Source: an uncultured Bacilli bacterium (GTDB lineage Bacteria; Bacillota_I; Bacilli_A; RF39; UBA660). Taken from it: a DNA stretch of 34,265 bases. Of this stretch, positions 8,369 through 31,192 are shown piece by piece; within the stretch, counting starts at the first letter, position 1; every line of letters begins with the position of its first letter. The stretch covers positions 1-34,265 of the forward strand of contig CANPXI010000001.1 of the NCBI GenBank assembly GCA_947585885.1, given 5' to 3'. Position numbers and translations under genes: made by a program. The notes under the pieces were generated by a model. The model was not told the origin of the DNA and ran no database searches. It was given only the letters and a program-made list of their open reading frames with translations.

Positions 8369-8379
8369 AGCAATTAATA

Positions 8380-8405: not shown

Positions 8406-8427
8406 TATTCCTTAAATAAAATATACG

Positions 8428-8436: not shown

Positions 8437-8452
8437 TTTAATAGGTGAACTT

Positions 8453-12212: not shown

Positions 12213-12241
12213 AATCTGTTTTCATAACAAATTCTTTTTTT
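12211..12241 (+). terminator. Probable rho-independent terminator after gpsA
   Basis: AGAATCTGTT (12211-12220) pairs with AACAAATTCT (12226-12235). The stem is 10 bp with one C-A mismatch and a 5-nt loop, followed by T6-7. Confidence 0.55.
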
Positions 12242-12243
12242 CT

Positions 12244-12271
12244 TTAAGAACATTATTTAATATGATATAAT
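12244..12271 (+). promoter_or_regulatory. Promoter of the pssA-like gene
   Basis: TTAAGA (12244-12249), 16-nt spacer containing TG (12263-12264), TATAAT (12266-12271). Confidence 0.5.
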
Positions 12272-12292
12272 CTTAAAAGAAAGTGGTGTTAT

Positions 12293-12910
12293 ATGAAAGT
12301 AATAGGTATTTATAGGAAATGTGATTTAGTAACTATGTTAGGAACATGTTTTGCAGTAACAGGAATAATTTTTGCATTTAATTTAAAAACAATCTGGGCT
12401 ATATTTTGCTTAATATTTGCTGCAATATGTGATGCATTTGATGGAGTAGTAGCAAGACGTTTTAAAAGTTTAAAAGATAATGAAATTTATGGAATTGAAT
12501 TAGATTCTTTAAGTGATGTAATAAGTTTTGGAGTACTACCTGCTATCATAGCATTAAACTTAATAAATAATAACATATATGGATATGCTGTATGTATATT
12601 CTTTGTATTATGTGGAGTCATAAGACTTGCTTATTTTAATATGCTTGCATCCACTAAAAAAGGAAGTAATAAAGAATTTATTGGTTTACCTATAACAGCA
12701 AGTGCAATAATATTACCTTTAGTTTATTTTGTATGTTATTTAATAAATGCTAAATACATTAACATAATAATACCTATAACTTTACTAATAACAGGTATAC
12801 TATTTATATGTCCATTAAAAATAAAAAAACCAACATTTAGAGAAAAACTAATATTATCAGTACTAGGAATATTAGCTATATTAATAGCTTTATATAAAAT
12901 ATATTTCTGA
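12293..12910 (+). CDS. pssA: CDP-alcohol phosphatidyltransferase, phosphatidylserine-synthase-like
   Basis: Carries the CDP-alcohol transferase signature D-x2-DG-x2-AR...G-x3-D-x3-D (CDAFDGVVARRF...GIELDSLSDVISFGVLPA). The protein is small and polytopic, like clostridial PssA. Confidence 0.65.
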   Translation: MKVIGIYRKCDLVTMLGTCFAVTGIIFAFNLKTIWAIFCLIFAAICDAFDGVVARRFKSLKDNEIYGIELDSLSDVISFGVLPAIIALNLINNNIYGYAVCIFFVLCGVIRLAYFNMLASTKKGSNKEFIGLPITASAIILPLVYFVCYLINAKYINIIIPITLLITGILFICPLKIKKPTFREKLILSVLGILAILIALYKIYF

Positions 12911-12914
12911 TAAA

Positions 12915-12944
12915 TTGGACAATTAAGTATTATTTTAGTAAAAT
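12915..12944 (+). promoter_or_regulatory. Candidate promoter of the first GT2 gene
   Basis: TTGGAC (12915-12920), 18-nt spacer, TAAAAT (12939-12944). The SD AGGTGA is at 12951-12956. Confidence 0.4.
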
Positions 12945-12961
12945 TAATATAGGTGAATTAA

Positions 12962-13900
12962 ATGGAAGATTTAGTAAGTATTATAGTTCCCGTTCATAAT
13001 AGTAGTAAATATCTTAGTGCTTGTTTAGAAAGTATAATAAATCAAACATACAAAAATATTGAAATAATCTGTATTGAAAATGGAAGCACTGATAATAGTC
13101 TAGAAATACTAAATAACTATAAAGATAAAATAAGATTAATTATAATGAAAAAGTCAGGCTTAAGCCTAGCAAGAAACACAGGAATAAATGCATCTAATGG
13201 TAAATATATTTCATTTGTGGATAGTGATGATTTTATAGAAAATACATATATTGAAGATTTATTAAAAACTTTAAAAAAAAATAACAGTGAATTAAGTATC
13301 TGTAATTATAATGAAATTCATGAAGAAGAAAATAAAAAAGTTAAAACAAAATCTTATCCAAATAAACTAATTTATGAAAAAGAAATAAAAGAAAATTTAG
13401 TAAACTTTAACTATGCCATATGGAACAAATTATATATAAAAGAAATAATAATTAAAAACAAAATATATTTTCCAGAAAATTTAAAATATGAAGACATCCC
13501 ATTTGTACTAAAATACCTTACTAAAATAAAATCAATTTCAAAAACTGAAAAATATTTATATAACTATTTAATTCATACAAATAGTGAACAAACAACAGTA
13601 GATGAAAGATTACTTAATATGATAGACATAATGAATTTATGTAAGAGTATTACAAAAAAAGAATACTTAGAAGACTTATATATAAAATCACTAATAACAT
13701 ATTCCCTAAAAACAAGATATTTAAAAAATAATAAATTAAGAAAAGAAATAATAAATAAATTTTATAAAGAATTAAATAAAACATATCCTAAATGGAAAAA
13801 AAGTAATTATATAAAATCAATGAATCAATTAAAACAAATAATAATAAAAAATAAAATATTAGTTATAATATATACGAAATGTTATAGTATACTAAATTGA
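12962..13900 (+). CDS. Family-2 glycosyltransferase
   Basis: VSIIVPVHNSSKYLSACLESIINQTY ... FVDSDDF. The C-terminal YPKWKKSNYIKS motif is shared with the GT2 at 16451. Confidence 0.85.
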   Translation: MEDLVSIIVPVHNSSKYLSACLESIINQTYKNIEIICIENGSTDNSLEILNNYKDKIRLIIMKKSGLSLARNTGINASNGKYISFVDSDDFIENTYIEDLLKTLKKNNSELSICNYNEIHEEENKKVKTKSYPNKLIYEKEIKENLVNFNYAIWNKLYIKEIIIKNKIYFPENLKYEDIPFVLKYLTKIKSISKTEKYLYNYLIHTNSEQTTVDERLLNMIDIMNLCKSITKKEYLEDLYIKSLITYSLKTRYLKNNKLRKEIINKFYKELNKTYPKWKKSNYIKSMNQLKQIIIKNKILVIIYTKCYSILN

Positions 13901-13924
13901 ATTATAGAAATAAAATGTTATAAT
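13897..13924 (+). promoter_or_regulatory. Promoter of tagG/tagH
   Basis: TTGAAT (13897-13902, overlapping the upstream stop), 16-nt spacer with TG (13916-13917), TATAAT (13919-13924). An AAGGAG SD follows. Confidence 0.55.
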
Positions 13925-13944
13925 AAAAATAAGGAGCACAAAAA

Positions 13945-14751
13945 ATGATCAAATCAATGTTTTTAAATTTAAAAAAATATTCATTCTTAATGTCCCAACT
14001 AATTCTAAAAGATTTTAAAGTAAAATATAAAAGAAGTGTTTTAGGTATATTATGGAGTTTACTATATCCAGTATTAATGATGAGTGTAATGGCCTTAGTA
14101 TTTACAAACATGTTTAGATTTAGAATGGAAGGAGTAAACTATCTTGTTTACCTAATCACTGGTTTAGTTATATGGAATTATTTTAACGAAGCAACCCAAT
14201 TAGGAATGGGATCAATAATATCTAGTTTTCCATTAATAAATAAAGTATATATACCAAAATATATATTGCCTTTAAGTAAATGTCTATTTGTTGGAATAAA
14301 TTTTTTACTATCTTTAATACCGCTTATGTTAATAGTTTTATTTACTGGTAATGTTGCAGAAGGAACAAAATGTTATATAAACATATATTATTTAATTATT
14401 CCATTTATAGTTCTATGTGCTTTCATGTTTACTCTAGGAGTAAGTTATATACTATCTTGCTTTGCCGTATTTTTAAGAGATACTATTTATATATATGGTA
14501 TAATGTTAACAATTTGGCAATATTTCACACCACTATTTTATTCAATAGAAATATTACCAGGATGGTTACAAAAAATATTTGTATTAAACCCACTTTATAT
14601 TTATATTAACTCAATAAGAGAAATAATATTATTTTCACGAATGCCATCTATACCTTATTTAATAATGTGTTTCCTATCTGGGGCAGTAGTATTATTACTA
14701 GGTTTAATAATATTTAAGAAAAATCAAGATAAATTTATTTACTATGCATAA
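13945..14751 (+). CDS. tagG: ABC-2-type polysaccharide/teichoic-acid export permease
   Basis: Six-TM ABC-2 architecture with an N-terminal LILKDFKVKYKRSVLGILWSLLYP motif. It sits directly upstream of the cognate ATPase. Confidence 0.8.
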   Translation: MIKSMFLNLKKYSFLMSQLILKDFKVKYKRSVLGILWSLLYPVLMMSVMALVFTNMFRFRMEGVNYLVYLITGLVIWNYFNEATQLGMGSIISSFPLINKVYIPKYILPLSKCLFVGINFLLSLIPLMLIVLFTGNVAEGTKCYINIYYLIIPFIVLCAFMFTLGVSYILSCFAVFLRDTIYIYGIMLTIWQYFTPLFYSIEILPGWLQKIFVLNPLYIYINSIREIILFSRMPSIPYLIMCFLSGAVVLLLGLIIFKKNQDKFIYYA

Positions 14752-14779
14752 TTTATAAGAAAGGATTAAATTAAATACT

Positions 14780-15526
14780 ATGATAAAAATTAATAATGTT
14801 TCTATGAGATTTAATTTAGGAGTAGAAAAAAATAATTCTTTAAAAAACGTATTTATAAGAATATTATCATTTAAAAAAAGAAAAAAAGAAGAATTTTGGG
14901 CACTAAAAGATGTAACATTTAATATAGAAAGAGGAGAAGTAATTGGCCTAATTGGCTCAAATGGAGCAGGTAAAAGTACTTTATTAAAAGTAGTAAGTGG
15001 AGTAATGAAACCAACAAAAGGATCAGTAAAAGTAAATGGTGTAATATCCCCAATGATAGAATTAGGAGCTGGTTTTGATCCAGAACTTACTGCAAGAGAA
15101 AATATATACTTAAATGGTGCAATACTAGGATATTCAAAAAAATTCTTAAATGAAAAATTTGATGAAATTGTAGAATTTTCAGAACTAAAAAATTTCTTAG
15201 ATGTTCCTGTAAAAAACTTTTCTTCTGGTATGACCGCAAAATTAGCTTTTAGTATAGCAACAGTTGTAGATCCAGAAATACTAATTGTAGACGAAATACT
15301 TTCTGTAGGTGACATAAAATTCCAAGAAAAAAGCAAAAACAAAATGCTTTCAATGATAACAGGTGGTACTACTGTATTATATGTATCACACTCACTTGAT
15401 TCAATAAAAGAACTTTGTACAAAAGTAGTATGGTTAGATCATGGCCAAGTAGTTAAAATAGGAGATCCAAAAACAATATGTGATGAATACTATGAAAAAT
15501 TAATGGGAAAGAAAAATGAAAAATAA
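14780..15526 (+). CDS. tagH: Polysaccharide/teichoic-acid export ABC ATPase (short form)
   Basis: Walker A GSNGAGKST, signature FSSGMTAKLAF, Walker B ILIVDE, H-loop SH. Confidence 0.85.
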   Translation: MIKINNVSMRFNLGVEKNNSLKNVFIRILSFKKRKKEEFWALKDVTFNIERGEVIGLIGSNGAGKSTLLKVVSGVMKPTKGSVKVNGVISPMIELGAGFDPELTARENIYLNGAILGYSKKFLNEKFDEIVEFSELKNFLDVPVKNFSSGMTAKLAFSIATVVDPEILIVDEILSVGDIKFQEKSKNKMLSMITGGTTVLYVSHSLDSIKELCTKVVWLDHGQVVKIGDPKTICDEYYEKLMGKKNEK

Positions 15527-16454
15527 ATTTAGTTTAATCGTACCAGTTTATAATGTAGAAAAATATTTGGAAAAATGCTTAAATAGCATAATAAATCAAA
15601 CATATAAAGACTTTGAAGTTATAATAGTTATTGATGGCTCCAAAGATAATAGTGAAAGCATTTGTAAAAAATATGCAGAAAACGATAACAGAATAAAAAT
15701 AATAAAACAAAAAAACAAAGGATTATCAGAAGCTAGAAACGAAGGAATAAAAAAAGCGACAGGAGACTATTTACTCTTTATAGATAGTGATGATTTTATA
15801 GAATTAAATCTTTTAGAAACTTTAAATAATGCATTAGAAAAAGATATTGATTTAATACGCTTTCAAGCAAACAACATAATAGATGAAAAAATAATTCCAT
15901 ATAATGAAACACCATTTGAAACAACAAATGGATTAGATGCATTTAATAAAATAAGAAAATATCATTATGTAGAACCAGTATGGGTTTATTTATATAATAA
16001 AAAATTTTGGGATAAACATAATTTTAAATATGTAAAAGATTGTGTCGCAGAAGATTATGGTTTAATTCCATATGTAATTGCATGTGCAAAAACAGTAAAA
16101 TCTATTAATTATATAGGATATAACTACATAACAAGAGTTGGTAGTTTAATGACAAGTAAAGATTATTCTAAAAAAATAAAAAGAATAGAAGATATGATAT
16201 TTCAAAGAAATAATTTAAAAGAAAAATTAAGCACCATAAATAATAGTGAAAACATTTTGGCATTTCTAAATGATGCTTTAATATATCACATAACAACTCT
16301 AAATAAAAAAGACTACAAAAAATATAATAAAAAACTAAAAGAATTAAATTGTTATGATTTATTAAAAACAGATACACTAAAACATAAAATAAAAAAAATG
16401 ATATTAGTTCATAATTCATGGTTCTTTTACCATTATCTTGTGAGGTTTTTATGA
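15516..16454 (+). CDS. Family-2 glycosyltransferase
   Basis: FSLIVPVYNVEKYLEKCLNSIINQTY ... FIDSDDF. Confidence 0.85.
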   Translation: MKNKFSLIVPVYNVEKYLEKCLNSIINQTYKDFEVIIVIDGSKDNSESICKKYAENDNRIKIIKQKNKGLSEARNEGIKKATGDYLLFIDSDDFIELNLLETLNNALEKDIDLIRFQANNIIDEKIIPYNETPFETTNGLDAFNKIRKYHYVEPVWVYLYNKKFWDKHNFKYVKDCVAEDYGLIPYVIACAKTVKSINYIGYNYITRVGSLMTSKDYSKKIKRIEDMIFQRNNLKEKLSTINNSENILAFLNDALIYHITTLNKKDYKKYNKKLKELNCYDLLKTDTLKHKIKKMILVHNSWFFYHYLVRFL

Positions 16455-17368
16455 TTAAAGTAAGTATAGTTGTACCAATTTATAACACAGGTAAATATTT
16501 ACCTAGATGTATTGAATCATTATTAAATCAAACTTTAAAAGAAATAGAAATAATACTAATAAATGATGGTTCTAAAGAAGACATAGATTCCATTATAAAA
16601 AAATATAAAGATGAAAGAATAAAATACATAAAAAAAGAAAACGAGGGAATAGGTAAAACAAGAAATCTTGGTATTAGCCTTGCAAAAGGTGAATACATAA
16701 TGTTTGTAGATTCAGATGACTTTGTAGAAGAATATTATTCTGAAAAACTATATAATGAAATAACAAAAACAAATAGTGATGTAGTTATAAGTAATTATTT
16801 TGAAGTTATAAATGGTAACAAAAAAGAAAAAAACTATCCATATTTTAACTCATCAAATCTTAAAGATAATCCTGAAATATTAAATAAGATAAATTTAAGC
16901 ACATGGAACAAAATATATAAAGCTTCTTTAATAAAAAATAATGACATAAAATTTGATGAAAAACTTAAATTTGAAGATGTACCTTTTATTGTTAAATCAC
17001 TTGAATGTGCACAAAAAATATCAAAAATTAATGATTTTATCTATGATTATATAATACATGAAAACAGTGAAACCACAACAATAGATAAAAGGATGTTTGA
17101 TATATTTAAAATTACTGACATAACATTTAATATTTTAAATAAAGAAGTATATAAAAAAGAAAGAACAAATCTTTTAGTACAAATAATTACATATAACATA
17201 ATGAATTTAAGAAACATAAGAGATATTAAAACAAAAATTAAATTTATAAACATAGCTTTTAAAAAATTAAAAGAATATGATAAAAATTGGAAAAAATGTG
17301 AATATATAAAAATAGTAAAAAAGAATAAACTTTTAACAACTTTATACTGCATAACTGCAAGAAGATAA
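16451..17368 (+). CDS. Family-2 glycosyltransferase (paralog of 12962..13900)
   Basis: MIKVSIVVPIYNTGKYLPRCIESLLNQT ... FVDSDDF. I prefer the ATG at 16451 (ATGA overlap with the upstream stop) to the track start at 16418. Confidence 0.85.
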   Translation: MIKVSIVVPIYNTGKYLPRCIESLLNQTLKEIEIILINDGSKEDIDSIIKKYKDERIKYIKKENEGIGKTRNLGISLAKGEYIMFVDSDDFVEEYYSEKLYNEITKTNSDVVISNYFEVINGNKKEKNYPYFNSSNLKDNPEILNKINLSTWNKIYKASLIKNNDIKFDEKLKFEDVPFIVKSLECAQKISKINDFIYDYIIHENSETTTIDKRMFDIFKITDITFNILNKEVYKKERTNLLVQIITYNIMNLRNIRDIKTKIKFINIAFKKLKEYDKNWKKCEYIKIVKKNKLLTTLYCITARR

Positions 17369-17454: not shown

Positions 17455-18432
17455 ATGATAATAACAAAAACACCTTTTAGAGTAAGCCTATGTGGTGGAG
17501 GAAGTGACCTTCCAACTTTCTATGAAAAAAATGGAGGATGTGTAATTAGCACTACAATAAAAAAATACATGTATATAACATCTCATCCATCATTTAATAA
17601 ACATCAAACTGTACTTAAATATTCTAAAATAGAAACAGTAACAAACTTAGATGATATTGAACATTCAATCTTTAGAGAATGTCTTAAACAAGAAGGAGTA
17701 GAAGGACTAGAAATTACTTCTATAGCTGATGTTCCTCAAGGTACAGGCTTAGGTTCTTCAAGCTCATTTACAGTTGGACTTTTAAAAAATTTAAAATGTC
17801 ATAAAAGAGAATACATATCTGATTCAGAATTAGCAGAAATGGCATGTGATATGGAAATAAATAAACTAGGAAATCCAATTGGTAAACAAGATCAATATGC
17901 AGCTGCATTTGGTGGACTTAACTTTTATCAATTTAATAAAGATGGTTCAGTATATGTGGAACCAATAATGATGAGCAAAGAATCATATAATCAATTAGAA
18001 AAAAACTTAATAATGTTATATGTTGGTGGTGAACACAGTGCATCTTCTATTTTAAAAGAACAATCAAAGAATATGACTTCTCTTAAAGATAAAGAAGAAG
18101 GACAAAAAAGAATAGTAGAATTAACTCATGAATTAAAATATGAACTAGAACATAATAACATAGATGCAGTCGGTAGAATACTAGATGAAAACTGGAAAAT
18201 AAAGAAAACATTAGCAAACGGAATATCAAATAACGAATTTGATAGACTATATGGAAAAGCCATAAAAAATGGAGCAACTGGTGGAAAAATTTTAGGAGCT
18301 GGAGGAAGTGGTTTCTTCTTATTCTATGTTCCAGAAGAAAATCAAAAGAAATTTAGAGAAGCAATGAAAGAACTAAAAGAAATGGAATTTAAATTTGATC
18401 ATCAAGGATCAACAATAATATTTGTAAATTAA
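17455..18432 (+). CDS. hddA: GHMP-family sugar kinase, D-glycero-alpha-D-manno-heptose-7-phosphate kinase-like
   Basis: The N-terminus ITKTPFRVSLCGGGSDLP and the GHMP ATP loop PQGTGLGSSSSF match, and the gene sits with gmhA, gmhB and hddC. Confidence 0.75.
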   Translation: MIITKTPFRVSLCGGGSDLPTFYEKNGGCVISTTIKKYMYITSHPSFNKHQTVLKYSKIETVTNLDDIEHSIFRECLKQEGVEGLEITSIADVPQGTGLGSSSSFTVGLLKNLKCHKREYISDSELAEMACDMEINKLGNPIGKQDQYAAAFGGLNFYQFNKDGSVYVEPIMMSKESYNQLEKNLIMLYVGGEHSASSILKEQSKNMTSLKDKEEGQKRIVELTHELKYELEHNNIDAVGRILDENWKIKKTLANGISNNEFDRLYGKAIKNGATGGKILGAGGSGFFLFYVPEENQKKFREAMKELKEMEFKFDHQGSTIIFVN

Positions 18433-18444
18433 GGAGGAAAAAAT

Positions 18445-19380
18445 ATGAAAGCATTAGTAACAGGTGGAGCAGGATTTATTGGTTCACACTTAGTAGAAAG
18501 ATTATTAAATGAGGGTTATGAAGTTATATGTGTAGATAACTTCACACTAGGTACACAAGAAAGGGTAGATAAATTTATTAATAACTCTAATTATAAATTT
18601 TATAAAATAGATATTAATAACACTGAAGATTTTTGTAATCAATTAAAAGATGAAAAAATAGACATAATCTATCATCTAGCAGCAAATTCTGATATACAAA
18701 AAGGTGGAAAAAATCCAATGGTAGATTATAATGACACATTTATGACAACATTTAGTGTACTTGAATTAATGAGAAGAAACAACATAAAAAATCTATTCTT
18801 CTCTTCTACTTCAGCTATATATGGAGATGAAAAAGGACTATTAATGACAGAAGACTTAGGAGGATTAAAACCAATTTCGTATTATGGAGGAGCAAAATTT
18901 GCAAGTGAATCATTTATCTCTTCTTATTCTTACATGAATGATTTTAACACAATGATATTTAGATTCCCAAATGTAATAGGCCCAAGTCTAACACATGGAG
19001 TAATATTTGACTTTAAGAAAAAACTAGAAAAAAATCCTAATGAACTTGAAATATTAGGTGATGGAACTCAAACAAAACCATACATCTATGTATTAGATTT
19101 AATAGATGTAATAATGATGATGACAAAAGAAATACCAAAAGGTATTGAAATATATAATATAGGCGTTGAAACTGCTACAAGTGTAACTACAATAGCCGAC
19201 ATAGTTTGTGAAGAACTAGGATACCAAAATGTAAAATATAAATATACAGGTGGTAATGTAGGATGGAAAGGTGATGTTCCTAAATTTCAATTTGATTTAA
19301 CAAAAATTCATAATAAAGGATGGCATTCATCATATACATCAGATGAAGCTGTAAGAGAAACAGTAAGACACATAAAATAA
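18445..19380 (+). CDS. NAD-dependent epimerase/dehydratase (extended SDR), probably modifying the nucleotide-heptose
   Basis: TGGAGFIGSHL Rossmann motif and a YxxxK catalytic motif (YYGGAKFASE). Confidence 0.8.
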   Translation: MKALVTGGAGFIGSHLVERLLNEGYEVICVDNFTLGTQERVDKFINNSNYKFYKIDINNTEDFCNQLKDEKIDIIYHLAANSDIQKGGKNPMVDYNDTFMTTFSVLELMRRNNIKNLFFSSTSAIYGDEKGLLMTEDLGGLKPISYYGGAKFASESFISSYSYMNDFNTMIFRFPNVIGPSLTHGVIFDFKKKLEKNPNELEILGDGTQTKPYIYVLDLIDVIMMMTKEIPKGIEIYNIGVETATSVTTIADIVCEELGYQNVKYKYTGGNVGWKGDVPKFQFDLTKIHNKGWHSSYTSDEAVRETVRHIK

Positions 19381-19390
19381 AGAGGTAAAT

Positions 19391-20695
19391 ATGAAAGCAA
19401 TAATAATGGCCGGAGGAAAAGGCACAAGAATTTCTTCTATAACTCAAGACGAAATACCTAAACCAATGTTAACAATAGGGAATAAACCAATACTTGAGCA
19501 TCAAATAGAATGCTTAAAATCATCTAATATAGATGAAGTAATAATAATAATCGGACATTTAGGAGAAAAAATATCTGAATACTTTAAAGATGGTAAAGAT
19601 TTTGGAATAAAAATATCATATATAAAAGAAGATCCAAATAATCCACTTGGAACTGCAGGATCATTATATTACTTAAAAGATAGAATTAAAGAAGATTTTA
19701 TTCTAATTTTTGGTGATGTATTTTTAAGTGTAGATTTTAACAAAATGATAGAATTTCATAAAAAATCTAAAGGTGACGTAACATTACTTACACATCCAAA
19801 CTCACACCCATTTGATAGTGACTTAGTAATAATAGATAAAAATAATCAAGTATTAGGTTTTGATTCAAAAAATAATATTAGAAACTATAATTATCATAAT
19901 CTTGTAAATACAGGAATATACATGTTTACTCCAAAAATTTTTGAATACATTAAAGAGCCTATTAAACTAGGAATTGAACATGATGTTATTGATAAAATGT
20001 TAAAAGATAACGTTAAAATATATTCGTATAAATCGACTGAATATATGAAAGATATGGGAACTCCAGATAGATATTTACAAGTTAATGAAGATTATAAAAA
20101 TGGCATTTGTACTAAAAAAAATCTTTCTAATAAACAAAAATGTATATTTTTAGATAGAGATGGTACATTAATTAAGTATGTAAGATTTTTAAATAAAAAA
20201 GAAGATCTTGAATTATTAAGTAATGTTGCAAGTGCAATAAAACTTATTAATAATAGTGAATATTTATGTATAGTTGTAACAAATCAACCAGTAATTGCAA
20301 GAGGTGAATGTACCTTAGAAGAATTAGAAGAAATACATAAAAAACTAGAAACATTACTAGGAAATGACGGAGCTTATTTAGATGGAATATATTATTGTCC
20401 ACATCATCCTGATAAAGGTTTTCCTGGAGAAATTAAAGAACTTAAAATTAATTGTAATTGCAGAAAACCAAATACAGGTATGATAGATAAAGCAGTAGAA
20501 GATTTTAACATAGAACTAAAAGACTCTATTATGATTGGTGATAGCACTACAGATATTGCTCTTGCAAAAAATGCTGGAATAAAATCAATATTAGTTTTAA
20601 CAGGTGAAAGAGGTAAAGATAATAAATATGATGTAACACCAGATGAAACATATGATGATTTATATTGTGCTGTAAAAAAATTAGTAAAGGAATAA
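19391..20695 (+). CDS. Bifunctional heptose-1-phosphate nucleotidyltransferase (HddC-like) fused to D,D-heptose-1,7-bisphosphate phosphatase (GmhB-like HAD)
   Basis: The N-terminus is MKAIIMAGGKGTRI...GTAGSL (sugar-1-P nucleotidyltransferase). The C-terminal half carries HAD motifs FLDRDGTLI, VVTNQ, the CPHHPD...CNCRKPNTGM Zn site and IGDSTTDIALAKNAG. Confidence 0.8.
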   Translation: MKAIIMAGGKGTRISSITQDEIPKPMLTIGNKPILEHQIECLKSSNIDEVIIIIGHLGEKISEYFKDGKDFGIKISYIKEDPNNPLGTAGSLYYLKDRIKEDFILIFGDVFLSVDFNKMIEFHKKSKGDVTLLTHPNSHPFDSDLVIIDKNNQVLGFDSKNNIRNYNYHNLVNTGIYMFTPKIFEYIKEPIKLGIEHDVIDKMLKDNVKIYSYKSTEYMKDMGTPDRYLQVNEDYKNGICTKKNLSNKQKCIFLDRDGTLIKYVRFLNKKEDLELLSNVASAIKLINNSEYLCIVVTNQPVIARGECTLEELEEIHKKLETLLGNDGAYLDGIYYCPHHPDKGFPGEIKELKINCNCRKPNTGMIDKAVEDFNIELKDSIMIGDSTTDIALAKNAGIKSILVLTGERGKDNKYDVTPDETYDDLYCAVKKLVKE

Positions 20696-20696
20696 T

Positions 20697-21424
20697 ATGA
20701 AAATAATCAAAAAAATAGTAAATAAAATAATATATGAAAAACCCACAACTTTTGTTTGTAACGGGGGGGTAATATTATTTACTTTGAAGGGAAACAAATC
20801 TCTTTACAAGAAGTACCAAAATATAACATAAAAATTAATGGAAAAAATAACATATTAAAATTAAATCCAATAAAAGGAGATGGAATAATAAATTTAGAAG
20901 TTTCAGGAGATAATTGCCTTTTTGAAATAGGAAAAAATAATACAATTAATAACCCAGTAACTATAATGTTTTGTGGAACAAGTGCTAGAAAGGCAAGTCA
21001 TGCAAAAATAATAATTAAAGATAATAATATATTTAATGGTTCTAATAATTTGATAATTGGACCATTAGATAAAAAACTTGAAATAGGTAATAATAATTTA
21101 TTTGCTAACCATATAATATTTAGATGCAGAAACGACCATTTAATTTATGATAAAGAAAGTTTAGAAATATTAAATATAGATAAAGATGTAATAATAGGAG
21201 ATAACAATTGGATATGTGAATATGTGACATTTTTACCAAAAGCAAAAATCAAAAATAACACTGTTGTATCAACAGGGACAATCGTAAACAAAGAAATAAA
21301 TGAATCTAATGTTTTATTAGTAGGAAGACCAGTTACAATAAAAAGAAGAAATATTAATTGGAGTATATCTTCTAGTAAAGAAAAAATTGATTATGATAAT
21401 TCTATCAAATTAAAGGAGGAATGA
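20697..21424 (+). pseudogene. Hexapeptide-repeat acetyltransferase disrupted by three frameshifts in its first ~185 nt
   Basis: The ATG at 20697 (SD AAAGGA) opens MKIIKKIVNKIIYEKPTTFVCNGG. The frame breaks at the G7 tract (20763-20769), then at CCAAAT (~20818-20821), then at GATTGG (~20878-20883). Joining the pieces gives a continuous ...GGNIIYFEGKQISLQEVP(K)YNIKINGKNNILKLNPIKGDGIINLEVSGDNCLFEIGKNN... that runs into the track ORF 20966..21424, which has beta-helix repeats such as IIGDNNWICEYVTFLPKAKIKNNTVV. Confidence 0.6.
20763..20769 (+). repeat. Poly-G homopolymer (G7)
   Basis: acGGGGGGGtaat. One extra G (G8), or two fewer, would join the first two reading-frame segments. Confidence 0.95.
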
Positions 21425-21427
21425 TAA

Positions 21428-22039
21428 ATGATAGATTTTAAAAATGCAATTAAAGAATATTATGAAAGAGAAATGGAATGCATCAAAAGATTCGATTTAG
21501 ACAAAATTAATGAAGCAATGAATATTCTCTATGAAACATATCAAAATGAAGGGACTATATATGTATGTGGTAATGGTGGTTCAGCTTCAACTGCAAGTCA
21601 TATGCAAAACGATTTTAATAAAGGCATAAGTGAATATGTAGATAAAAAATTTAATTTCTATTGTTTAAATGATAATGTATCAACTATGATGGCTATTGCA
21701 AATGATATAGGATATGAGGAAATATTCAGATTCCAAATAAAAAATAAAATAAAACCTAATGATTTATTTATAGGAATCTCAGGAAGTGGAAACTCAAAAA
21801 ATGTTTTAAATGCAGCTGAATATGCAAAAGAACAAGGTGCTAAAGTTTTAGGAATAACTGGATACTCTGGTGGAAAATTAAAAGAAATGTCAGATTATTC
21901 AATGCATGTTGATGAAAATGATATGCAAATAGCAGAAGACTTACATATGACTTTTGATCATATGATGATGAAAATATTTTATAATTATCTAACCAAAGGT
22001 GAAATATCAGGACAAAACATAAATGATGTTCATTGTTAA
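21428..22039 (+). CDS. gmhA: Phosphoheptose (sedoheptulose-7-phosphate) isomerase, SIS domain
   Basis: VCGNGGSASTASHMQNDF, GISGSGNSKNV and a C-terminal AEDLHMTFDHMM motif. AAGGAGG SD. Confidence 0.85.
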   Translation: MIDFKNAIKEYYEREMECIKRFDLDKINEAMNILYETYQNEGTIYVCGNGGSASTASHMQNDFNKGISEYVDKKFNFYCLNDNVSTMMAIANDIGYEEIFRFQIKNKIKPNDLFIGISGSGNSKNVLNAAEYAKEQGAKVLGITGYSGGKLKEMSDYSMHVDENDMQIAEDLHMTFDHMMMKIFYNYLTKGEISGQNINDVHC

Positions 22040-24152: not shown

Positions 24153-24596
24153 ATGGCAATAAAAAAGAGCATATTAAAAATGTATGACAAATATGAAGAA
24201 TTAATAAATTATTTAATAATTGGTGTTATAACAACTATTATTAGCTTATCAGTTTATTATTTATGTGTATTTACTATATTAAATCCAAATAATCCTATTC
24301 TTTTACAAATTGCTAATATCTTATCTTGGGTTTCAGGATTAATATTTGCATATATTGCAAATAGAAAAATTGTTTTTAAAAGCAAAGAAAAAAATATAGC
24401 AAAAGAATTAACAAAATTTACTATTGGTAGAATATCAACACTACTAATAGACATGTTAATAATGTTTATAAGTGTTACATTACTAAATTTAAATGATAAA
24501 ATAATGAAAATAATATCTAATATAGTTATAATAGTTTTAAATTATATATTAAGTAAATTTATAGTATTCAAAAAGGGTGATGGAGGTTTATTATGA
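24153..24596 (+). CDS. gtrA: GtrA-family small membrane protein (candidate polyprenyl-phosphate-sugar flippase)
   Basis: Four TMs with the family-typical YIANRKIVFKS and NYILSKFIVFKK motifs. The start is uncertain: the track uses GTG 24120, and in-frame ATGs lie at 24153 and 24180. Confidence 0.75.
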   Translation: MAIKKSILKMYDKYEELINYLIIGVITTIISLSVYYLCVFTILNPNNPILLQIANILSWVSGLIFAYIANRKIVFKSKEKNIAKELTKFTIGRISTLLIDMLIMFISVTLLNLNDKIMKIISNIVIIVLNYILSKFIVFKKGDGGLL

Positions 24597-25558
24597 TTAA
24601 AGAAAAAATAAGTATAATTGCGCAATGTTATAATGAAGAAGAAACAATAAAAATTTATTATGATGAAATGAAAAAAATAATGGAAAAAATGAATAATGTT
24701 GATTTTGAAATTATTTTTATAGATGATTGTAGCAAAGATAGAAGTTTAGAAATTATAAAAGAATTAGCAGAAAAAGATTCAAGAATTAAATGTTTATCGC
24801 TATCTAGAAATTTTGGCCGTGAAGCATCTTCTATGGCTGGATTTGAATATGCTACAGGAGACTATATAACAACAATGGATATAGATTTACAAGACCCACC
24901 TGAATTATTAATAGAAATGTATAATACATTAAAAACTAAAAAATTTGATATAGCTGCTGCAAAAGCAACAACAAGAAAAGGTTATGGTAAATTTCATAAA
25001 TTATGTATAAAAATATTCTATAAGATAATTAATAAAATATCTACTGTACAAATGATAGATGGTCAAAGAGAATATAGATTAATGACAAGACAAGTTGTTA
25101 ATGAACTAATAAGATATAAAGAAAAAAATTTATTTAATAAAGCATTACTTAACGATGTAGGTTTTAGAATAAAATGGATTGAATATGAGAATATTGAAAG
25201 AGTAGCTGGAAATACAAAATTTCCATATAAAAGAATGATAAAATATGCATTAACTGGTATAATAGCTTACTCTAGTTTCCCTTTAACATTTATAATTATT
25301 TTAGGAATAATATTATTAATAATATCAATTATTTTACTAATTTCTATGATTATATTATTATGTTTAAAAACTTTAACAAATTTTAGTACTTTATTTTTAA
25401 CAACAATGTTAACAACTTTTACATCAATAATATTAATATCTCTTGGAATAATGTCTCTTTATCTATACCAAATACATATAGAAGTAAAACAAAGACCTTT
25501 GTATATAATACGCGAAACAATTGATCATGAAAGGGAAAGTAAAAATGAAAGAAAATAA
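24593..25558 (+). CDS. gtrB: Polyprenyl-phosphate glycosyltransferase (GT2, GtrB/CsbB/ArnC/DPM1-like) with two C-terminal TMs
   Basis: YNEEETI, FIDDCSKD, SRNFGREASSMAGFEYATGDYITTMDIDLQDPPELL, and two C-terminal TM helices. ATGA overlap with gtrA and a GGAGG SD. Confidence 0.85.
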   Translation: MIKEKISIIAQCYNEEETIKIYYDEMKKIMEKMNNVDFEIIFIDDCSKDRSLEIIKELAEKDSRIKCLSLSRNFGREASSMAGFEYATGDYITTMDIDLQDPPELLIEMYNTLKTKKFDIAAAKATTRKGYGKFHKLCIKIFYKIINKISTVQMIDGQREYRLMTRQVVNELIRYKEKNLFNKALLNDVGFRIKWIEYENIERVAGNTKFPYKRMIKYALTGIIAYSSFPLTFIIILGIILLIISIILLISMIILLCLKTLTNFSTLFLTTMLTTFTSIILISLGIMSLYLYQIHIEVKQRPLYIIRETIDHERESKNERK

Positions 25559-28073
25559 ATTTGGGCTAATAGATATAGCAAAATTAATATTTAGTATTTT
25601 CATAATAGGAATTCATACTAGTGTATTAGGTAATACTACATTAGGTTTTTATATGCATGATTTTTTATTTCGTTTAGCTGTTCCATTTTTCTTTCTTGCA
25701 TCAGGTTATTTTTTAGCTAGGAATGCTTTAAAAGGAAATAGAAACGAAGAAATAAGAAAATATATAAAAAAAACATACAAAATATTTATTATATTAGGTT
25801 TTATATACCTCATAATAAGTTATATAAGATTTGATAATTTTAGTATGGATGCAATACTTCAAAGTTTTTGGAATCTATTAATTTTACAAAGCACATCTCC
25901 AATTTGGTTTGTAGGAACACTAGTTGCGAGTGCTATTATATTGTTACATTTAGACGATAACAAAAATTTAAAAAAAGCTTTACTAATAGCATTAGTTTTA
26001 TATATACTTGGATTTTCTTTTTCAACATATAAATATATAGCTTTAAAATTACATCTAACTTCAATCGTTAATTTTTTAAGTAATAAATTTATAACACAAC
26101 GTAATGTATTTTTTATAGGATTTTTATTTTTTGGTATAGGTTATTATATTGGAAAGAACGAAGAAAAATTTTTATCTATATCTAAAAAATGGTTAGCAGG
26201 ATTATTATTCGGGGGAGGTATATTATTACTAATTGAAAATATTTTTGTTCACAGAGTTTTAATATTTACACCACTTCATGAATATTATTTTTCACATTTA
26301 ATAGTAATTCCAGTTTTATTTTTAATATTATCAAATCCAAAACTTAATTCTAAAATTAAATTTAATACTACAAATTTAAGAAAACTTTCAACTTATATAT
26401 TTTACATTCATTTTTTAGTAATAATATTATTGACAAAAAGTAAATTTATGATTAACTCTACAATTACATCATTTATATTAACAACTTTAATAACAATAAT
26501 ATTATCATTGATACTATTATTAATAACAAAAAGAAAAGACAAAGAAATAGAAACAAAAAATATAATAAGTTTTATTTTATATAGTGCTTTTGTATTTATG
26601 GTAATTGTTACAATTACTAAATTATTTAATAAAACAGTTTGGGCTGATGAAGTATGTTCTTTATCTATGTTAAAACATTCATATTTAGATATTATAAAGT
26701 TACAAATAAATGATGTGCATCCTCCGTTATATTATTTAATGTTTAAAGCATTTTATGAAATAGTGACTATCTTTGTAAAAATAAATCCAATTATTTTAGG
26801 AAAAATATTCTCTATAATTCCTTTATTTATATTAACAATTTTTGCATTAACAAAAATAAGAAAAAATTTTGGAAATGTAACATGTTCGCTATTCTTACTA
26901 TTTATAATAGGAATGCCAAATATGATAAATTATTATCTAGAAATAAGAATGTATAGCTGGGCTATGTGTTTTGTAACTGTAGCATTTATATATTTATATG
27001 ATATATTAAAATTGAAAAATAATAAGTCATGGATACTGTTTGTAATTTTTTCAATATTAGCTGCCTACACACATCTATATGCATGTTTGGCAGTAGGATT
27101 AATGTATTTATTCTTATTTATTTACTTTATAATAAATAAAGATATGAAATCTTTAAAAAAGTGGTTTATATATGGAATTTTAACAATTATATTATATATC
27201 CCTTGGGCACTTCCTTTATTAAATCAAATAGGAATAGTAAAAGATGGTTTTTGGATTTCAGAAATAACTTTTAAAACATGTTTAGATTATATTAGATTTG
27301 TTTTCTTTACAGAATTAGGTGATAGATTTAGTAAAAACTTCTTTTCAATTTCATTAATAATTTTAGTATTATATTTATTAATAAAAAATATAAAAGAAAA
27401 AAATATTGATGAAAAAGTTTATTCATATATGGGAATAATGGTACTTACACTAACTGTTGGAATAGGTATAATAGTTTCAATAATAAAAGTCCCAGTATTT
27501 ATATCTAGATATATGTTTCCTGCATTAGGATGCTTTTGGTTAGTAGTATCAATTATGCTAGCTAAATATATAAAAGCTGATTGGAAAAAAGCGTTAATAT
27601 TATTTATTCCTTTACTAATAACAACAAATTATTTTAGAAATTTTGCTATGCATGAAGTACAATTAGAAACTGAATTAAATAAATTTAATGAATCAATAAA
27701 AATACTAAAAGAAGATAATATAATATTAACTAATTATAATCACATACAATTATTATTTGCTTATTTTGAACCAAATAAAACTTTCTACCTATATGGAGGA
27801 GATGATAATCAAATGATTCATGATCTCTTTGGAAATTTGAAAGGTAATATAAGTATAAATGATATAAAAAATTACTTAAGAAAAGGTAAAAAAGTATATT
27901 TTGCAGATAACAAATATAACACAACCAGATTCCAAAATGAAATTGTTAATAACAATTTAAATTATAATTTAGTTGATAATTTTAAAATGGATTATTATAA
28001 TATAGACTTATATGAAATTACTAGTGAGGAAAAAGAAAGTGAAGAAATTGAATACAATATTGAAATGGTTTAA
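25545..28073 (+). CDS. Fusion protein: N-terminal acyltransferase-3 (OatA/OafA-like O-acyltransferase) membrane domain plus C-terminal GT-C (PMT_2/ArnT-like) glycosyltransferase with an extracytoplasmic tail
   Basis: The first ~330 aa carry LIDIAKLIFSIFIIGIHT and RLAVPFFFLASGYF (acyltransferase_3 hallmarks) across about 10 TMs. From about aa 350, WADEVCSLSML...NDVHPPLYYLMF gives the GT-C first-loop acidic motif and HPPLYY, followed by many TMs and a ~130-aa soluble C-terminus. I prefer the ATG at 25545. Confidence 0.7.
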   Translation: MKENKFGLIDIAKLIFSIFIIGIHTSVLGNTTLGFYMHDFLFRLAVPFFFLASGYFLARNALKGNRNEEIRKYIKKTYKIFIILGFIYLIISYIRFDNFSMDAILQSFWNLLILQSTSPIWFVGTLVASAIILLHLDDNKNLKKALLIALVLYILGFSFSTYKYIALKLHLTSIVNFLSNKFITQRNVFFIGFLFFGIGYYIGKNEEKFLSISKKWLAGLLFGGGILLLIENIFVHRVLIFTPLHEYYFSHLIVIPVLFLILSNPKLNSKIKFNTTNLRKLSTYIFYIHFLVIILLTKSKFMINSTITSFILTTLITIILSLILLLITKRKDKEIETKNIISFILYSAFVFMVIVTITKLFNKTVWADEVCSLSMLKHSYLDIIKLQINDVHPPLYYLMFKAFYEIVTIFVKINPIILGKIFSIIPLFILTIFALTKIRKNFGNVTCSLFLLFIIGMPNMINYYLEIRMYSWAMCFVTVAFIYLYDILKLKNNKSWILFVIFSILAAYTHLYACLAVGLMYLFLFIYFIINKDMKSLKKWFIYGILTIILYIPWALPLLNQIGIVKDGFWISEITFKTCLDYIRFVFFTELGDRFSKNFFSISLIILVLYLLIKNIKEKNIDEKVYSYMGIMVLTLTVGIGIIVSIIKVPVFISRYMFPALGCFWLVVSIMLAKYIKADWKKALILFIPLLITTNYFRNFAMHEVQLETELNKFNESIKILKEDNIILTNYNHIQLLFAYFEPNKTFYLYGGDDNQMIHDLFGNLKGNISINDIKNYLRKGKKVYFADNKYNTTRFQNEIVNNNLNYNLVDNFKMDYYNIDLYEITSEEKESEEIEYNIEMV

Positions 28074-29604
28074 TAAAGAAAAAAGAAGGATATTTTTGAT
28101 AACACTATTTATAGGGTTTATGGCTAATATACTAGTCATAACAAACGATATATTAGGAATAGATGCAATAGCTTTTTCTGACATATATATTGCAAATAAC
28201 TGGGATTTATCATTAGGTAGATGGCTATTAAAATATATTGATTATACTAGATTTGGATTATCTAGTTCAGTAGTTAGTGGAATATTTGCTATTTCAATTT
28301 TAAGTATATCTAGCTTATTACTTATCGATTTATTTGAAATTAAAAATAAATTTTTTAAGTATTTAATATCAATATTACTAGTAGTTTCGCCATTTTTTAC
28401 AGAAACTTTATATTCGTTTTTTTGCTCTTTTGAATTTACACTTTCTTTTATGTTGGCAATCTTAAGTGTATTTTTAATATATAAATTGAAAAATAAAAAT
28501 ATTAGAATAATAATATCAAGTTTATGTATTGCTTGCTCGTTAGGTCTTTATCAATCATTTATAGGAGTTACTTGTGGGCTATGCATTTTAGTTCCACTAA
28601 TTCGTTTATTAAAAAACGAAATGACACCAAAGAAATTTTTACAAAAATTTGTGGAAAGTTTAATTATTGGGATATTAGCTATTATTGTATATGAAATAAT
28701 ATTAAATTTACTACTAATGTTTGCTGGGATAAGTTTGTCAGATTACTCTGGAGCTAATAGCATAGGACTTAATAATTTTAAGAATATAGTATTTTTAATA
28801 AAAGATAGTTTAAAAAGTTTTTATTCATATTTTTTAACAAATAAAATAATAAATAATTTAATATATAAAAGAAATATAGTAAATATCATAATAACTTTTT
28901 TAACTTTAATAATTATAATTAAAAAAATATTAGAAAATAAAAACAAAACAAATATATTATTTATTTTAGAAATAATATTATGCTTAATATTAACTCCAGT
29001 AGCACTTGGAATTATAGAAATAATTGCCCCGGCAAGAGACATAAATCAACTAATGAGTGCACCATACATATTAATTTATATATTTGTTGTTGCATTATTA
29101 GATAATGAAAAATTTAAAGGGATTTATAAATTTTCGGGGGGGGTACTGGTATTATTAACAATATTTATAATAGATTCATACTTTGTAATGGCTAATGCAT
29201 CAAGTATGGCTGTAAGAATAACAAAAGAAAGAACTTTATTTGCTACTAAGAGAATTATTAATAAAATATATGAAACAGAAGGATATAATGATAATATGAA
29301 AGTACTTTTTATAGGAAATAGTTCTGGAAAATACTTTAAAAGTAGTAATGAAGTATATAAATTATCAAGTGGTCCAGCAACAACAATGCCTTTAACATAT
29401 GAGAAGCCTGATTTATGTAATAGGGATTATCATAATTTGATTAAATATTATTTAGGAATAGAATTTGTAAGAGCTGATATAAATGATTACAGTAAGGTAA
29501 TAAAAACAGAAGAATTTAAAAATATGAATACATATCCATATAATAATTTTACAAAAGTAATAGGAGATATTTTGGTTGTTAAAATAAAAGAAATAGAAAA
29601 TTAA
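28039..29604 (+). CDS. Polytopic membrane protein with a C-terminal extracytoplasmic domain; candidate GtrII-like (Glucos_trans_II-type) serotype-specific glycosyltransferase, paralog 1
   Basis: About 10 TMs, conserved block VVSPFFTETLYSFFCSFEFT, and a ~130-aa soluble C-terminus. It follows gtrA/gtrB. The family call is from memory only. I prefer GTG 28039 (GAGGA 8 nt upstream) to the track ATG at 28012, which has no SD. Confidence 0.55.
   Translation: MKKLNTILKWFNKEKRRIFLITLFIGFMANILVITNDILGIDAIAFSDIYIANNWDLSLGRWLLKYIDYTRFGLSSSVVSGIFAISILSISSLLLIDLFEIKNKFFKYLISILLVVSPFFTETLYSFFCSFEFTLSFMLAILSVFLIYKLKNKNIRIIISSLCIACSLGLYQSFIGVTCGLCILVPLIRLLKNEMTPKKFLQKFVESLIIGILAIIVYEIILNLLLMFAGISLSDYSGANSIGLNNFKNIVFLIKDSLKSFYSYFLTNKIINNLIYKRNIVNIIITFLTLIIIIKKILENKNKTNILFILEIILCLILTPVALGIIEIIAPARDINQLMSAPYILIYIFVVALLDNEKFKGIYKFSGGVLVLLTIFIIDSYFVMANASSMAVRITKERTLFATKRIINKIYETEGYNDNMKVLFIGNSSGKYFKSSNEVYKLSSGPATTMPLTYEKPDLCNRDYHNLIKYYLGIEFVRADINDYSKVIKTEEFKNMNTYPYNNFTKVIGDILVVKIKEIEN
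29136..29143 (+). repeat. Poly-G homopolymer (G8), in frame inside paralog 1
   Basis: ttt tcG GGG GGG Gta encodes F-S-G-G-V at about residue 375 of 530. G7 would give a stop 5 codons later (tac tgg tat tat taa), and G9 a stop about 17 codons later. Confidence 0.95.
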
Positions 29605-29689: not shown

Positions 29690-31192
29690 ATGTTCACATT
29701 TATTATAGGATTTATAGCTAATATATTAGTTATAACTGGAGACATATTATTCCCAGATTCTTATTTATTAACTGAATTTTACATATCTAACATATGGGAT
29801 TTATCTTTAGGTAGATGGTTTTTAAGATTTATAGATTATACTAGATTTGGATTATCTAGCCCACTTGTAAGCACAACATTTGCATTACTTGCACTATCAT
29901 TTTCATCAATTTTGATAAGTGATTTATTCAAAATAAAAAACAAAGTAAATAAATATATAATCTCACTCTTATTAGTGGTTTCTCCATTTTTTACAGAAAC
30001 ACTATTTTCAGTATTTTGTTCATTTGAATTTACTGTATCATTTTTACTATCAATTTTATCTGTATACTTTTTATATAAAATAGATAACAAAGTATTTAGA
30101 ATTATATTATCTGCAATATGCTTAACTTTATCGCTTGGTTTATATCAAGCTTATTTAGGTGTTACATGTGGATTATGTTTATTAGTGCCAATTGTATTAC
30201 TTTTAAAAAAAGAAATAAATACGAAAGAATTAATTCAAAAAATTATTGAAAGTTTAATAATGGGAATCATAAGCATATTACTTTATGAAGGGATACTACA
30301 TATATTACTTGCATTAAGTCATGTTTCAATGGCCGATTATTCAGGTGCAAATGAAATAGGTTTAAAAACAATACTTAATATTCCTACCTTATTAAAAGAT
30401 GCTTATACAAGTTTTGCAAATTATTATCTAAATAATGAAATTATAAACAATTTAATATATAGAAGAAATTATTTAAATATAATTATTTTAGTTATAAGCA
30501 TATTATTAATAATTAAGTTAGTAAAAAATAATTTTAGAAAAAATAAATCATTAGTAATTTTTGAAATAATAATTATGTTTCTTTTATTACCACTTGCTTT
30601 AGGTATAATTGAATTAATAGCTAGTGAAAGAGATATAAATCAACTTATGGCAGCACCTTATGTTTTAATATATATATTTATTATAAGTTTATTTGATAAC
30701 TTAAATTTAAAACTAAATATAGACAAAATTTTATATGGAGTATCTACATTATTAGTGCTTGTAATAATAGATTCATATTTTGTTATGTCAGCTGCATCTA
30801 GCATGGCTGCTAAAATAACAAAAGAAAATACTTTATTTGCGGCAAGAAATATGATAAATGAAATATACCAAACTGATGGCTACAATCCAAATACAAAAGT
30901 ATTATTTGTAGGTTCTTCTAAAGGAGATTATTTTAAAAGAAGTAACCCAGTGTACAGACTCTCTAGTGGATTAACTCCTAATATATCACTAATGTGGGAT
31001 GAACCAAATCTTACAAATCGAGGATGGAATTATATAATTGAACACAATCTTGGAATTAAATTAACTGAATCAACTATGGAAGATTATAATAAAATTATTA
31101 ATACATTTGAATTTAAAGAAATGAATACTTATCCAAAAAAAGAATATACAAAAATAATAGATGATGTTTTAGTTGTTAAAGTCTCTGAATAA
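29690..31192 (+). CDS. Polytopic membrane protein, tandem paralog 2 of 28039..29604
   Basis: Collinear with paralog 1 over its whole length, with more than half the residues identical by eye (e.g. VVSPFFTETLFSVFCSFEFT, RDINQLMAAPYVLIYIF, IIDSYFVMSAASSMA). The true start may lie upstream of the first ATG (see findings). Confidence 0.55.
   Translation: MFTFIIGFIANILVITGDILFPDSYLLTEFYISNIWDLSLGRWFLRFIDYTRFGLSSPLVSTTFALLALSFSSILISDLFKIKNKVNKYIISLLLVVSPFFTETLFSVFCSFEFTVSFLLSILSVYFLYKIDNKVFRIILSAICLTLSLGLYQAYLGVTCGLCLLVPIVLLLKKEINTKELIQKIIESLIMGIISILLYEGILHILLALSHVSMADYSGANEIGLKTILNIPTLLKDAYTSFANYYLNNEIINNLIYRRNYLNIIILVISILLIIKLVKNNFRKNKSLVIFEIIIMFLLLPLALGIIELIASERDINQLMAAPYVLIYIFIISLFDNLNLKLNIDKILYGVSTLLVLVIIDSYFVMSAASSMAAKITKENTLFAARNMINEIYQTDGYNPNTKVLFVGSSKGDYFKRSNPVYRLSSGLTPNISLMWDEPNLTNRGWNYIIEHNLGIKLTESTMEDYNKIINTFEFKEMNTYPKKEYTKIIDDVLVVKVSE

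Follow-up and report, generated by a model that had tools for sequence, protein, structure and literature searches.

Can a short run of guanines inside one coding sequence serve as an ON/OFF switch for the decoration of a surface glycan in a gut Firmicute? The question is raised by a 34,265 nt stretch of DNA from an uncultured Bacilli bacterium (contig CANPXI010000001.1 of assembly GCA_947585885.1; this whole stretch is referred to as the window), in which a first-pass annotation had singled out eight consecutive guanines in a membrane glycosyltransferase gene as a candidate slipped-strand switch. The tract, GGGGGGGG, occupies 29136-29143 on the + strand and lies within an open reading frame (ORF) of 530 amino acids (28012..29604, + strand) that is designated GtrC1 here. 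As annotated, it is in-frame and reads TCG GGG GGG GTA, encoding S375-G376-G377-V378, and since the frame is intact the gene is currently in the ON state. We assign a probability of about 0.7 to the reading that this G8 tract is a slipped-strand (simple-sequence) contingency locus. The reading, which the annotation had proposed, gains its support from the combination of the anatomy of the tract, its disfavoured codons, a second gene of the same cluster that is OFF, the recurrence of such tracts in the family and a G7/G8 polymorphism in a Hungatella-like relative.

GtrC1 matched the Pfam family Glucos_trans_II/GtrII (PF14264) with 146 bits (cut-off 30, E 1.6e-42), residues 58-360 corresponding to positions 16-315 of the 317-position profile. 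Together with the adjoining GtrA- and GtrB-like genes, this agrees with its annotation as a membrane glycosyltransferase, as does the presence of a tandem paralog. The protein has about 11-12 predicted transmembrane helices, an invariant loop (W64-D-L-S-L-G-R-W71) and a C-terminal alpha/beta domain (422-530). In an AlphaFold model based on 18 homologs (pLDDT 85, pTM 0.86), G376 and G377 are located at the start of the last long helix (371-421), ahead of the C-terminal domain, so that a frameshift in either direction removes both, which had been foreseen for the last transmembrane segments and the extracytoplasmic domain. In frameshift simulations, loss of one G (G7) gave a product of 381 aa, in which 4 foreign codons precede the stop, and gain of one G (G9) a product of 394 aa with 16 foreign codons; the annotation, which is right in its main points, had given 5 and about 17 codons. 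The residues encoded by the tract vary in the alignment of the 18 homologs (ILYGV, TLCII, IISWT etc.), and since the position is not conserved, the Gly-Gly pair is not a requirement of the protein.

The paralog GtrC2 (29690..31192, + strand, 500 aa) is 57% identical to GtrC1 and also matched PF14264 (142 bits). At the equivalent site (30725-30745) it carries aaaattttatatggagtatct, which encodes L-Y-G-V and is, as had been noted, devoid of a G run; GtrC2 is presumably expressed constitutively. A Foldseek search of the GtrC1 model against the PDB gave no match with E < 0.001. The matches of highest probability were GT-C enzymes (DPY19 0.92, AftB 0.85, AglB 0.77), with TM-scores of just 0.3-0.35, and because no match to the PDB was significant, the assignment of GtrC1 to the GT-C fold is tentative. 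From its family membership and by analogy with described systems (PMC8035078), GtrC1 is a putative transferase that would pass a sugar from undecaprenyl-phosphate-sugar to a surface polymer.

The spelling of the tract is unusual for the window, which has a G+C content of 24.5%. Only two G or C runs of at least 6 occur in the 34 kb, the G8 tract at 29136-29143 and a G7 tract at 20763-20769. Both are situated in glycan-decoration genes, and both have the length, about 7 or more, at which G/C homopolymers are known to slip. Codon usage was taken from the 28 long ORFs of the window. GGG accounts for 23 of 547 Gly codons (4.2%) and TCG for 1.6% of Ser codons, each being the rarest codon for its amino acid. 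The GGG-GGG pair was found once among 43 Gly-Gly pairs, namely at the G8 site, with 0.076 expected. The first-pass statement that Gly-Gly is written elsewhere with codons that avoid homopolymers was correct in that no other GGG-GGG exists; the number of pairs is however 43 and not about two dozen, and two of the others hold one GGG codon each. From the window's own codon usage, the probability of finding G8 given the peptide S-G-G-V is 2.8e-5. A tandem-repeat scan of the window yielded AT-rich repeats of low score and no further convincing repeat switch.

The G7 tract (20763..20769, + strand), which the annotation had not mentioned, begins 66 nt after the start codon of a frameshifted hexapeptide-repeat acetyltransferase gene (20697..21424, + strand) inside a heptose-nucleotide gene set. 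The start codon at 20697-20699 is coupled to the stop codon of the preceding gene, and the frame that begins with this ATG ends about 20 codons past the tract, i.e. the tract is out of frame and the gene OFF. Because of this frameshift, the ORF list contains only a 152-aa remnant of the gene, starting at 20966. Addition of one G (G8) opens the frame to 21424 and restores a 242-aa protein with a hexapeptide-repeat domain. The reconstructed protein aligned without gaps over residues 7-238 to a 243-aa homolog (P0032; 49% identity, E 2e-64), with the alignment spanning the junction and covering 96% of P0032. The gene of P0032 has aat-ggt-aaa at the site of the tract, from which it follows that the G7 tract is derived. 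The cluster thus combines an ON tract with an OFF tract, each in an accessory decoration gene, as is typical of sets of contingency loci.

Two ENA assemblies contain the same strain at low coverage. One of them, ERZ27249426 (L046), stems from another sample, is identical to the window at this site and also reads G7; the G7 of the window is therefore not a one-off consensus error. As a separate observation on this gene, L046 lacks exactly 54 bp (18 codons, in-frame) relative to the window at about 21147-21200, a length that corresponds to a single left-handed beta-helix turn; this could be a real allele or an effect of low-coverage assembly. That the length of the homopolymers, or the tracts as such, are metagenome consensus errors is suggested by the nature of the window, which is a contig of a metagenome-assembled genome (MAG), and by the error-proneness of homopolymers on some platforms. 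We consider this explanation very improbable: the G8 tract preserves a 530-aa frame that is homologous from end to end with full-length relatives, the G7 tract was reproduced base for base in the independent ENA assembly, and tracts of the same kind recur across dozens of assemblies that were made independently by different pipelines.

An OFF gene may, on the other hand, simply be a dead gene. According to this alternative, the G runs are mutational hotspots without switch function, the acetyltransferase is a recently inactivated pseudogene, GtrC1 will decay likewise, and there is no selection for reversibility. It is consistent with the OFF state of the G7 gene in both available assemblies, with the lack of an in-gene tract in the closest GtrC orthologs, and with the frequent dispensability of accessory decoration genes and their loss in MAG lineages. 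What argues against one-way decay within the window is that the tracts are made of strongly disfavoured codons at tolerant positions, and that the frame of 218 codons downstream of the G7 tract is still intact in a genome of 24.5% G+C. Evidence from relatives bears on both decay and slipped-strand switching, and we regard decay as unlikely in the light of it.

To place the tracts in the GtrC family, 45 genome loci and 35 metagenome loci encoding relatives of GtrC1 were scanned for G or C runs of at least 7. In-frame tracts in GtrC-like genes were detected in Lachnospiraceae, as G7 at residue ~114 of 529 (L035), G10 at residue ~326 of 543 (L041), G7 at residue 376 of 579 (L068) and G9 at residue ~493 of 543 (L020 and L053, one species from two samples). 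In loci with at most 50% G+C, 6 tracts fell into 83 kb of GtrC matches versus 5 into 749 kb of flanking DNA, an 11-fold enrichment (binomial p 3e-4) that counts three species twice (L020/L053, L042/L076 and L039/L074) and has flanks rich in glycan genes, rather than whole genomes, as its baseline. High-GC loci (L043, L044, L059 and in part L068) were uninformative, since G/C runs are expected there. Among the flank tracts we counted a G7 in L039/L074, which falls within the ORF for a GT4-type glycosyltransferase of 393 aa (Glycos_transf_1); as an ATG follows it directly (gaaggaGGGGGGGatg), it may instead belong to a Shine-Dalgarno-like sequence.

The nearest GtrC homologs (51-54% identity) are encoded in Bacilli-labelled MAGs from the gut of water deer, rabbit and chicken. 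In low-GC Bacilli relatives, tracts were located in other decoration genes and in one promoter spacer. A Bacilli MAG of 22.8% G+C (L045) carries an in-frame G8 with identical flanks in each of two tandem AlgX/DHHW-like O-acetylation genes (1681-2982 and 4459-5760), which are beside an MBOAT gene and flanked by two GtrC-like genes. In the closest relative (L004, GtrC 54% identical), a G8 tract occupies the 18-nt spacer of a predicted TTGACA-18-TATTAT promoter (12275-12304), which agrees with the consensus at 11 of 12 positions and precedes a TagF-like gene by about 40 nt. With G7 this promoter would have the optimal spacing of 17 nt, which makes the tract a candidate transcriptional poly-G switch. 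Promoter-spacer homopolymer switches are known from Neisseria, where they are of the porA/opc type; the likeness would concern this relative and not the window.

All tracts (window, L004, L020, L035, L041, L042, L045 and L068) consist of G on the coding strand and never of C. When distinct tracts were compared, 8 of 9 were followed by T and 6 of 9 by TA, usually encoding Gly-Gly-Val. The idea that this 3' context signals a special origin was rejected, as it is probably an effect of codon constraint. By their positions and genes, the poly-G tracts appear to have arisen more than once in gut Firmicutes, independently of one another, both in GtrC-like genes and in adjacent genes for glycan decoration. 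Independent origins at several positions of GtrC, in neighbouring decoration genes and in a promoter spacer speak against mere hotspots and in favour of the switch.

Both states of such a tract were detected in a Hungatella-like relative. In the locus L042 (Hungatella sp. MAG), the tract is a G8 and the GtrC-like gene is split at it; in L076, from another sample and about 99.4% identical to L042, it is a G7, and the frame continues past the tract without a stop as far as the contig end. When the ON protein of L042 was reconstructed, it proved identical to P0049 (506 aa). The 90% cluster of P0049 contains full-length forms of 506 aa as well as split forms, namely N-terminal pieces of 228 aa ending in KLAGGGVADQL and C-terminal pieces of 273-288 aa. 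Two of the full-length forms are represented by 11 and 20 contigs, and two of the 228-aa forms by 24 and 3. Of 34 Hungatella-like contigs that were fetched, 20 carry G7 (intact) and 14 G8 (split); the latter represent 13 unique records, L042 and L094 being the same record. Since the look-ups were made by exact protein, only G7 and G8 were recoverable. Three haplotypes, each identical over 1350 nt of flanking sequence, carry both G7 and G8 (8/5, 1/1 and 10/5), and the tract state differs between neighbouring run accessions, such as SRR24675120/123 versus 124/128, SRR19599921 versus 22 and ERZ14425214 versus 12. The ON/OFF polymorphism spans many metagenomes of mouse-gut type, and changes of the tract are far more frequent than changes in the sequence around it. 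In the NCBI record of L042/L094 (JAAWLV010000014.1), the two halves are annotated as separate hypothetical proteins, MCI9147030.1 and MCI9147031.1; many other samples contain the 506-aa protein in one piece. A contig of ERR3357644 (L096), also G8 and OFF, has in addition lost 9 bp of the C-terminal half of the gene without a shift of the frame (285-aa piece P0154).

The presence of both states on three identical haplotypes fits repeated or back-and-forth switching better than one-way decay. It also bears on programmed recoding, by which ribosomal frameshifting or transcriptional slippage on the G run would yield both GtrC1 products, or rescue the acetyltransferase, without any change of the DNA. 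Homopolymer runs can support transcriptional slippage, and the G7 gene is otherwise intact. Neither a stimulatory structure nor a conserved slippery motif was noticed, although no dedicated search was made; the tract is missing from homologs, and the differences in DNA length in the relatives fully explain both states. Recoding is hence a highly unlikely explanation, and slipped-strand mispairing at the level of the DNA is preferred.

As to variation among relatives, which had been suggested as a check on the switch, G7 and G8 are both present in the Hungatella-like homolog, and no second copy of the window's G8 region was recovered. This and several further points weigh against a switch in GtrC1. 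GtrC1 is alone in its protein cluster, no record of an exact or partial copy exists, and a scan of the metagenome contig collection for the flanks of the G8 tract, with a variable gap, gave 0 matches. The seven window proteins that were looked up in clusters were all singletons with no sister sequences, and a contig from a third sample that carries the window's GmhA (L082) ends short of both tracts. The G7 tract is available in one further copy, that of L046, which has the same length. G8 is at the short end of fast-switching tracts in mismatch-repair-proficient bacteria. Within the GtrC gene itself, the closest orthologs, which are 51-54% identical and come from low-GC Bacilli MAGs, have no tract (0 in-gene in the class with at most 30% G+C). 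The over-representation of G runs, determined for the 34-kb window, speaks in itself for a switch, with 3 GGGGGGG matches (overlapping count) versus a mean of 0.22 in dinucleotide-preserving shuffles, but is only moderately strong, as 2 of 100 shuffles reached 3 matches. The double counting and the baseline of the enrichment test belong here as well, and the functions of the enzymes, being putative, rest on domain matches.

Several of these points would also be expected if the G8 tract were no more than a stable spelling of Ser-Gly-Gly-Val, with slippage too rare to matter and GtrC1 a constitutive gene. Such a static sequence would agree with the lack of a second copy showing variation, with a tract length near the lower limit of those accepted as phase-variable, and with the G9 shared by L020 and L053. 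It is hard to reconcile with the codon-choice probability given above, with a second tract in the same cluster that has already slipped, and with the G7/G8 polymorphism in the homologous gene of another gut Firmicute, and we judge it quite unlikely. None of the four alternatives, i.e. consensus error, decay at a hotspot, recoding and static sequence, fits the combined evidence as well as a slipped-strand switch.

The gene content of the window identifies it, as far as domain matches can tell, as the wall-glycopolymer gene cluster of a very AT-rich gut Firmicute. Core assembly genes (6368..17368, + strand) encode a LytR-CpsA-Psr (LCP) ligase, an O-antigen-ligase-like protein, a GT4 initiating transferase of WecA/TagO type, GpsA, a CDP-alcohol phosphatidyltransferase, several GT2 enzymes and an ABC-2 exporter pair. 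They are followed by a pathway of nucleotide-heptose type (17455..22039, + strand) that surrounds the G7 gene and comprises a GHMP kinase (17455-18432), an epimerase/dehydratase (18445-19380), a nucleotidyltransferase-HAD phosphatase fusion (19391-20695) and an SIS-domain isomerase (21428-22039), all on the + strand. About 3.5 kb upstream of GtrC1, on the same strand, are genes for a GtrA-like small membrane protein (PF04138; 24120..24596, + strand), a putative flippase of a lipid-linked sugar, and for a GtrB-like family-2 glycosyltransferase with a hydrophobic C-terminus (24593..25558, + strand), a putative undecaprenyl-phosphate sugar synthase. Between these and GtrC1 is a gene (25521..28073, + strand) for an 850-aa protein in which an acyltransferase-3 domain is fused to a polytopic membrane domain with a weak EpsG-like match; by its Pfam matches, the protein is a further putative extracytoplasmic modifier of the same polymer. 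The gene overlaps both neighbours, by 38 nt and 62 nt, and the fusion may couple O-acylation to an extracytoplasmic transferase. Downstream of GtrC2, a GT2/TagF-like protein is encoded at 31218-34148. By its genes, the cluster appears to hold a three-component transmembrane glycosylation system as in Gram-positive wall polymers (PMC8035078, PMC7389260, PMC9574508).

Directly upstream of the LCP ligase gene, at 2621-4867 and 4878-6329, two large secreted-type proteins are encoded. One contains SH3_3, cadherin-like and type I dockerin domains and the other a cadherin-like domain. A dockerin is unexpected for a MAG of the class Bacilli, and the window contains no cohesin partner.

On the basis of the Pfam domains and of described Gram-positive systems, the GtrB-like enzyme would load a sugar onto undecaprenyl phosphate, the GtrA-like protein would flip the lipid-linked sugar across the membrane, and the GtrC-type polytopic transferases would attach it to the polymer outside. 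Slipped-strand mispairing during replication would occasionally add or remove a G in the G8 run, shifting the frame at codons 376-378 and leading to a stop at 381 or 394 aa and to loss of the decoration, and a second slip would restore both the frame of GtrC1 and the decoration. Together, the G8 locus in GtrC1 and the G7 locus in the acetyltransferase could produce four states of the surface glycan in a clonal population. By analogy, selection is likely to come from phages and from host antibodies directed at the decorations. In this scheme we infer the switching rate at the G8 tract, the chemistry of the enzymes and the selective agent.

Whether the two tracts are part of something larger is a matter on which we find the odds even: a multi-locus poly-G ‘phasome’ for the decoration of wall glycopolymers in uncultured gut Firmicutes, convergent in GtrC genes across Bacilli-like bacteria and Lachnospiraceae and acting on extracytoplasmic glycosylation, O-acetylation and glycerophosphate addition. 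It has been asked why genomes with many loci of simple-sequence repeats (SSR) seem to be confined to pathogens, and whether database bias is responsible (PMC11868660). An uncultured gut commensal with 24.5% G+C that has two such loci in a single wall-polymer cluster bears on this question, as do the recurrence of the same device among GtrC genes of other gut Firmicutes and the ON/OFF polymorphism in one relative. If the phasome is real, SSR-based bet-hedging against phages and immunoglobulin A (IgA) would be general in Gram-positive commensals and extend beyond a few mucosal pathogens. Phage receptors and IgA epitopes on these bacteria would then be stochastically variable, MAG ‘pseudogenes’ split at G runs (e.g. 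MCI9147030/MCI9147031) would be switch states and not dead genes, and a single consensus assembly would be insufficient to read glycan phenotypes at the strain level. The Hungatella-like case offers a directly testable system.

The mechanism itself is already known, and it is the setting, Gram-positive gut commensals, that is under-documented. We found no prior description of poly-G phase variation of GtrC-type or other wall-polymer decoration genes in Firmicutes in a literature search that was incomplete. Reviews of Gram-positive multi-component glycosylation and of surface polysaccharides of gut commensals leave homopolymer switching of these genes unmentioned, and a term search of one of them (PMC8035078) found no mention of phase variation, homopolymers or frameshifts. 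In a study of lactococcal phages, a frameshift was described as a one-off resistance mutation (PMC9733650).

The proposed mechanism is that of the glycan contingency genes of Campylobacter, Neisseria and Haemophilus (PMC3068675, PMC8355987, PMC5953494). The poly-G genes for capsule, lipooligosaccharide (LOS) and flagellin glycosylation of Campylobacter jejuni (e.g. Cj1295; PMC3068675, PMC8355987, PMC3025981) resemble the window in several respects: the genome is AT-rich, the G tracts lie within genes and are about 8-10 long, and the genes concerned are accessory ones that modify sugars, some of them in loci with a heptose pathway and with acetyl or other decorations. There, too, several tracts are present per glycan locus, and ON and OFF states coexist. 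Unlike in C. jejuni, the host here is a Firmicute of Gram-positive type, the target would be a wall glycopolymer and not capsule, LOS or flagellin, and the switched enzyme would be an extracytoplasmic transferase of GtrC type that uses a lipid-linked donor; for Campylobacter, moreover, switching rates and the absence of mismatch repair are established.

With respect to the enzymes, a close parallel is offered by gtrABC of Salmonella and phage P22 (PMC2909390, PMC3688519), in which a GtrA flippase, a GtrB lipid-sugar synthase and a serotype-specific GtrC transferase bring about a phase-variable glycan decoration that affects recognition by phages and antibodies. The Salmonella gtr switch is epigenetic, acts through Dam and OxyR at the promoter and controls the whole operon (PMC2909390), whereas the window has a DNA repeat in one of two gtrC paralogs, and the acceptor would be a Gram-positive wall polymer. 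The same gene set and inferred chemistry are found in the three-component glycosylation systems of Listeria, Bacillus, Lactococcus and Streptococcus (PMC8035078; PMC7389260, PMC9574508, PMC10821137). They share with the window a GT2 with C-terminal transmembrane helices, a flippase of the GtrA family and a polytopic transferase, of GT-C type there and tentatively so in the window, encoded in or near a wall-polymer cluster, and their decorations serve as phage receptors.

Among Gram-positive bacteria, ON/OFF control by a G/C homopolymer has its counterparts in the poly-G slippage switch of a sortase-dependent pilus in the gut commensal Bifidobacterium breve (PMC9187656) and in the poly-C tract of mga in group A Streptococcus, as cited in PMC11868660. 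The targets there are pili and a regulator, respectively, whereas in the window it would be the decoration of a glycan; moreover, Bifidobacterium is GC-rich, and G runs in its genome are far less exceptional than they are at 24.5% G+C.

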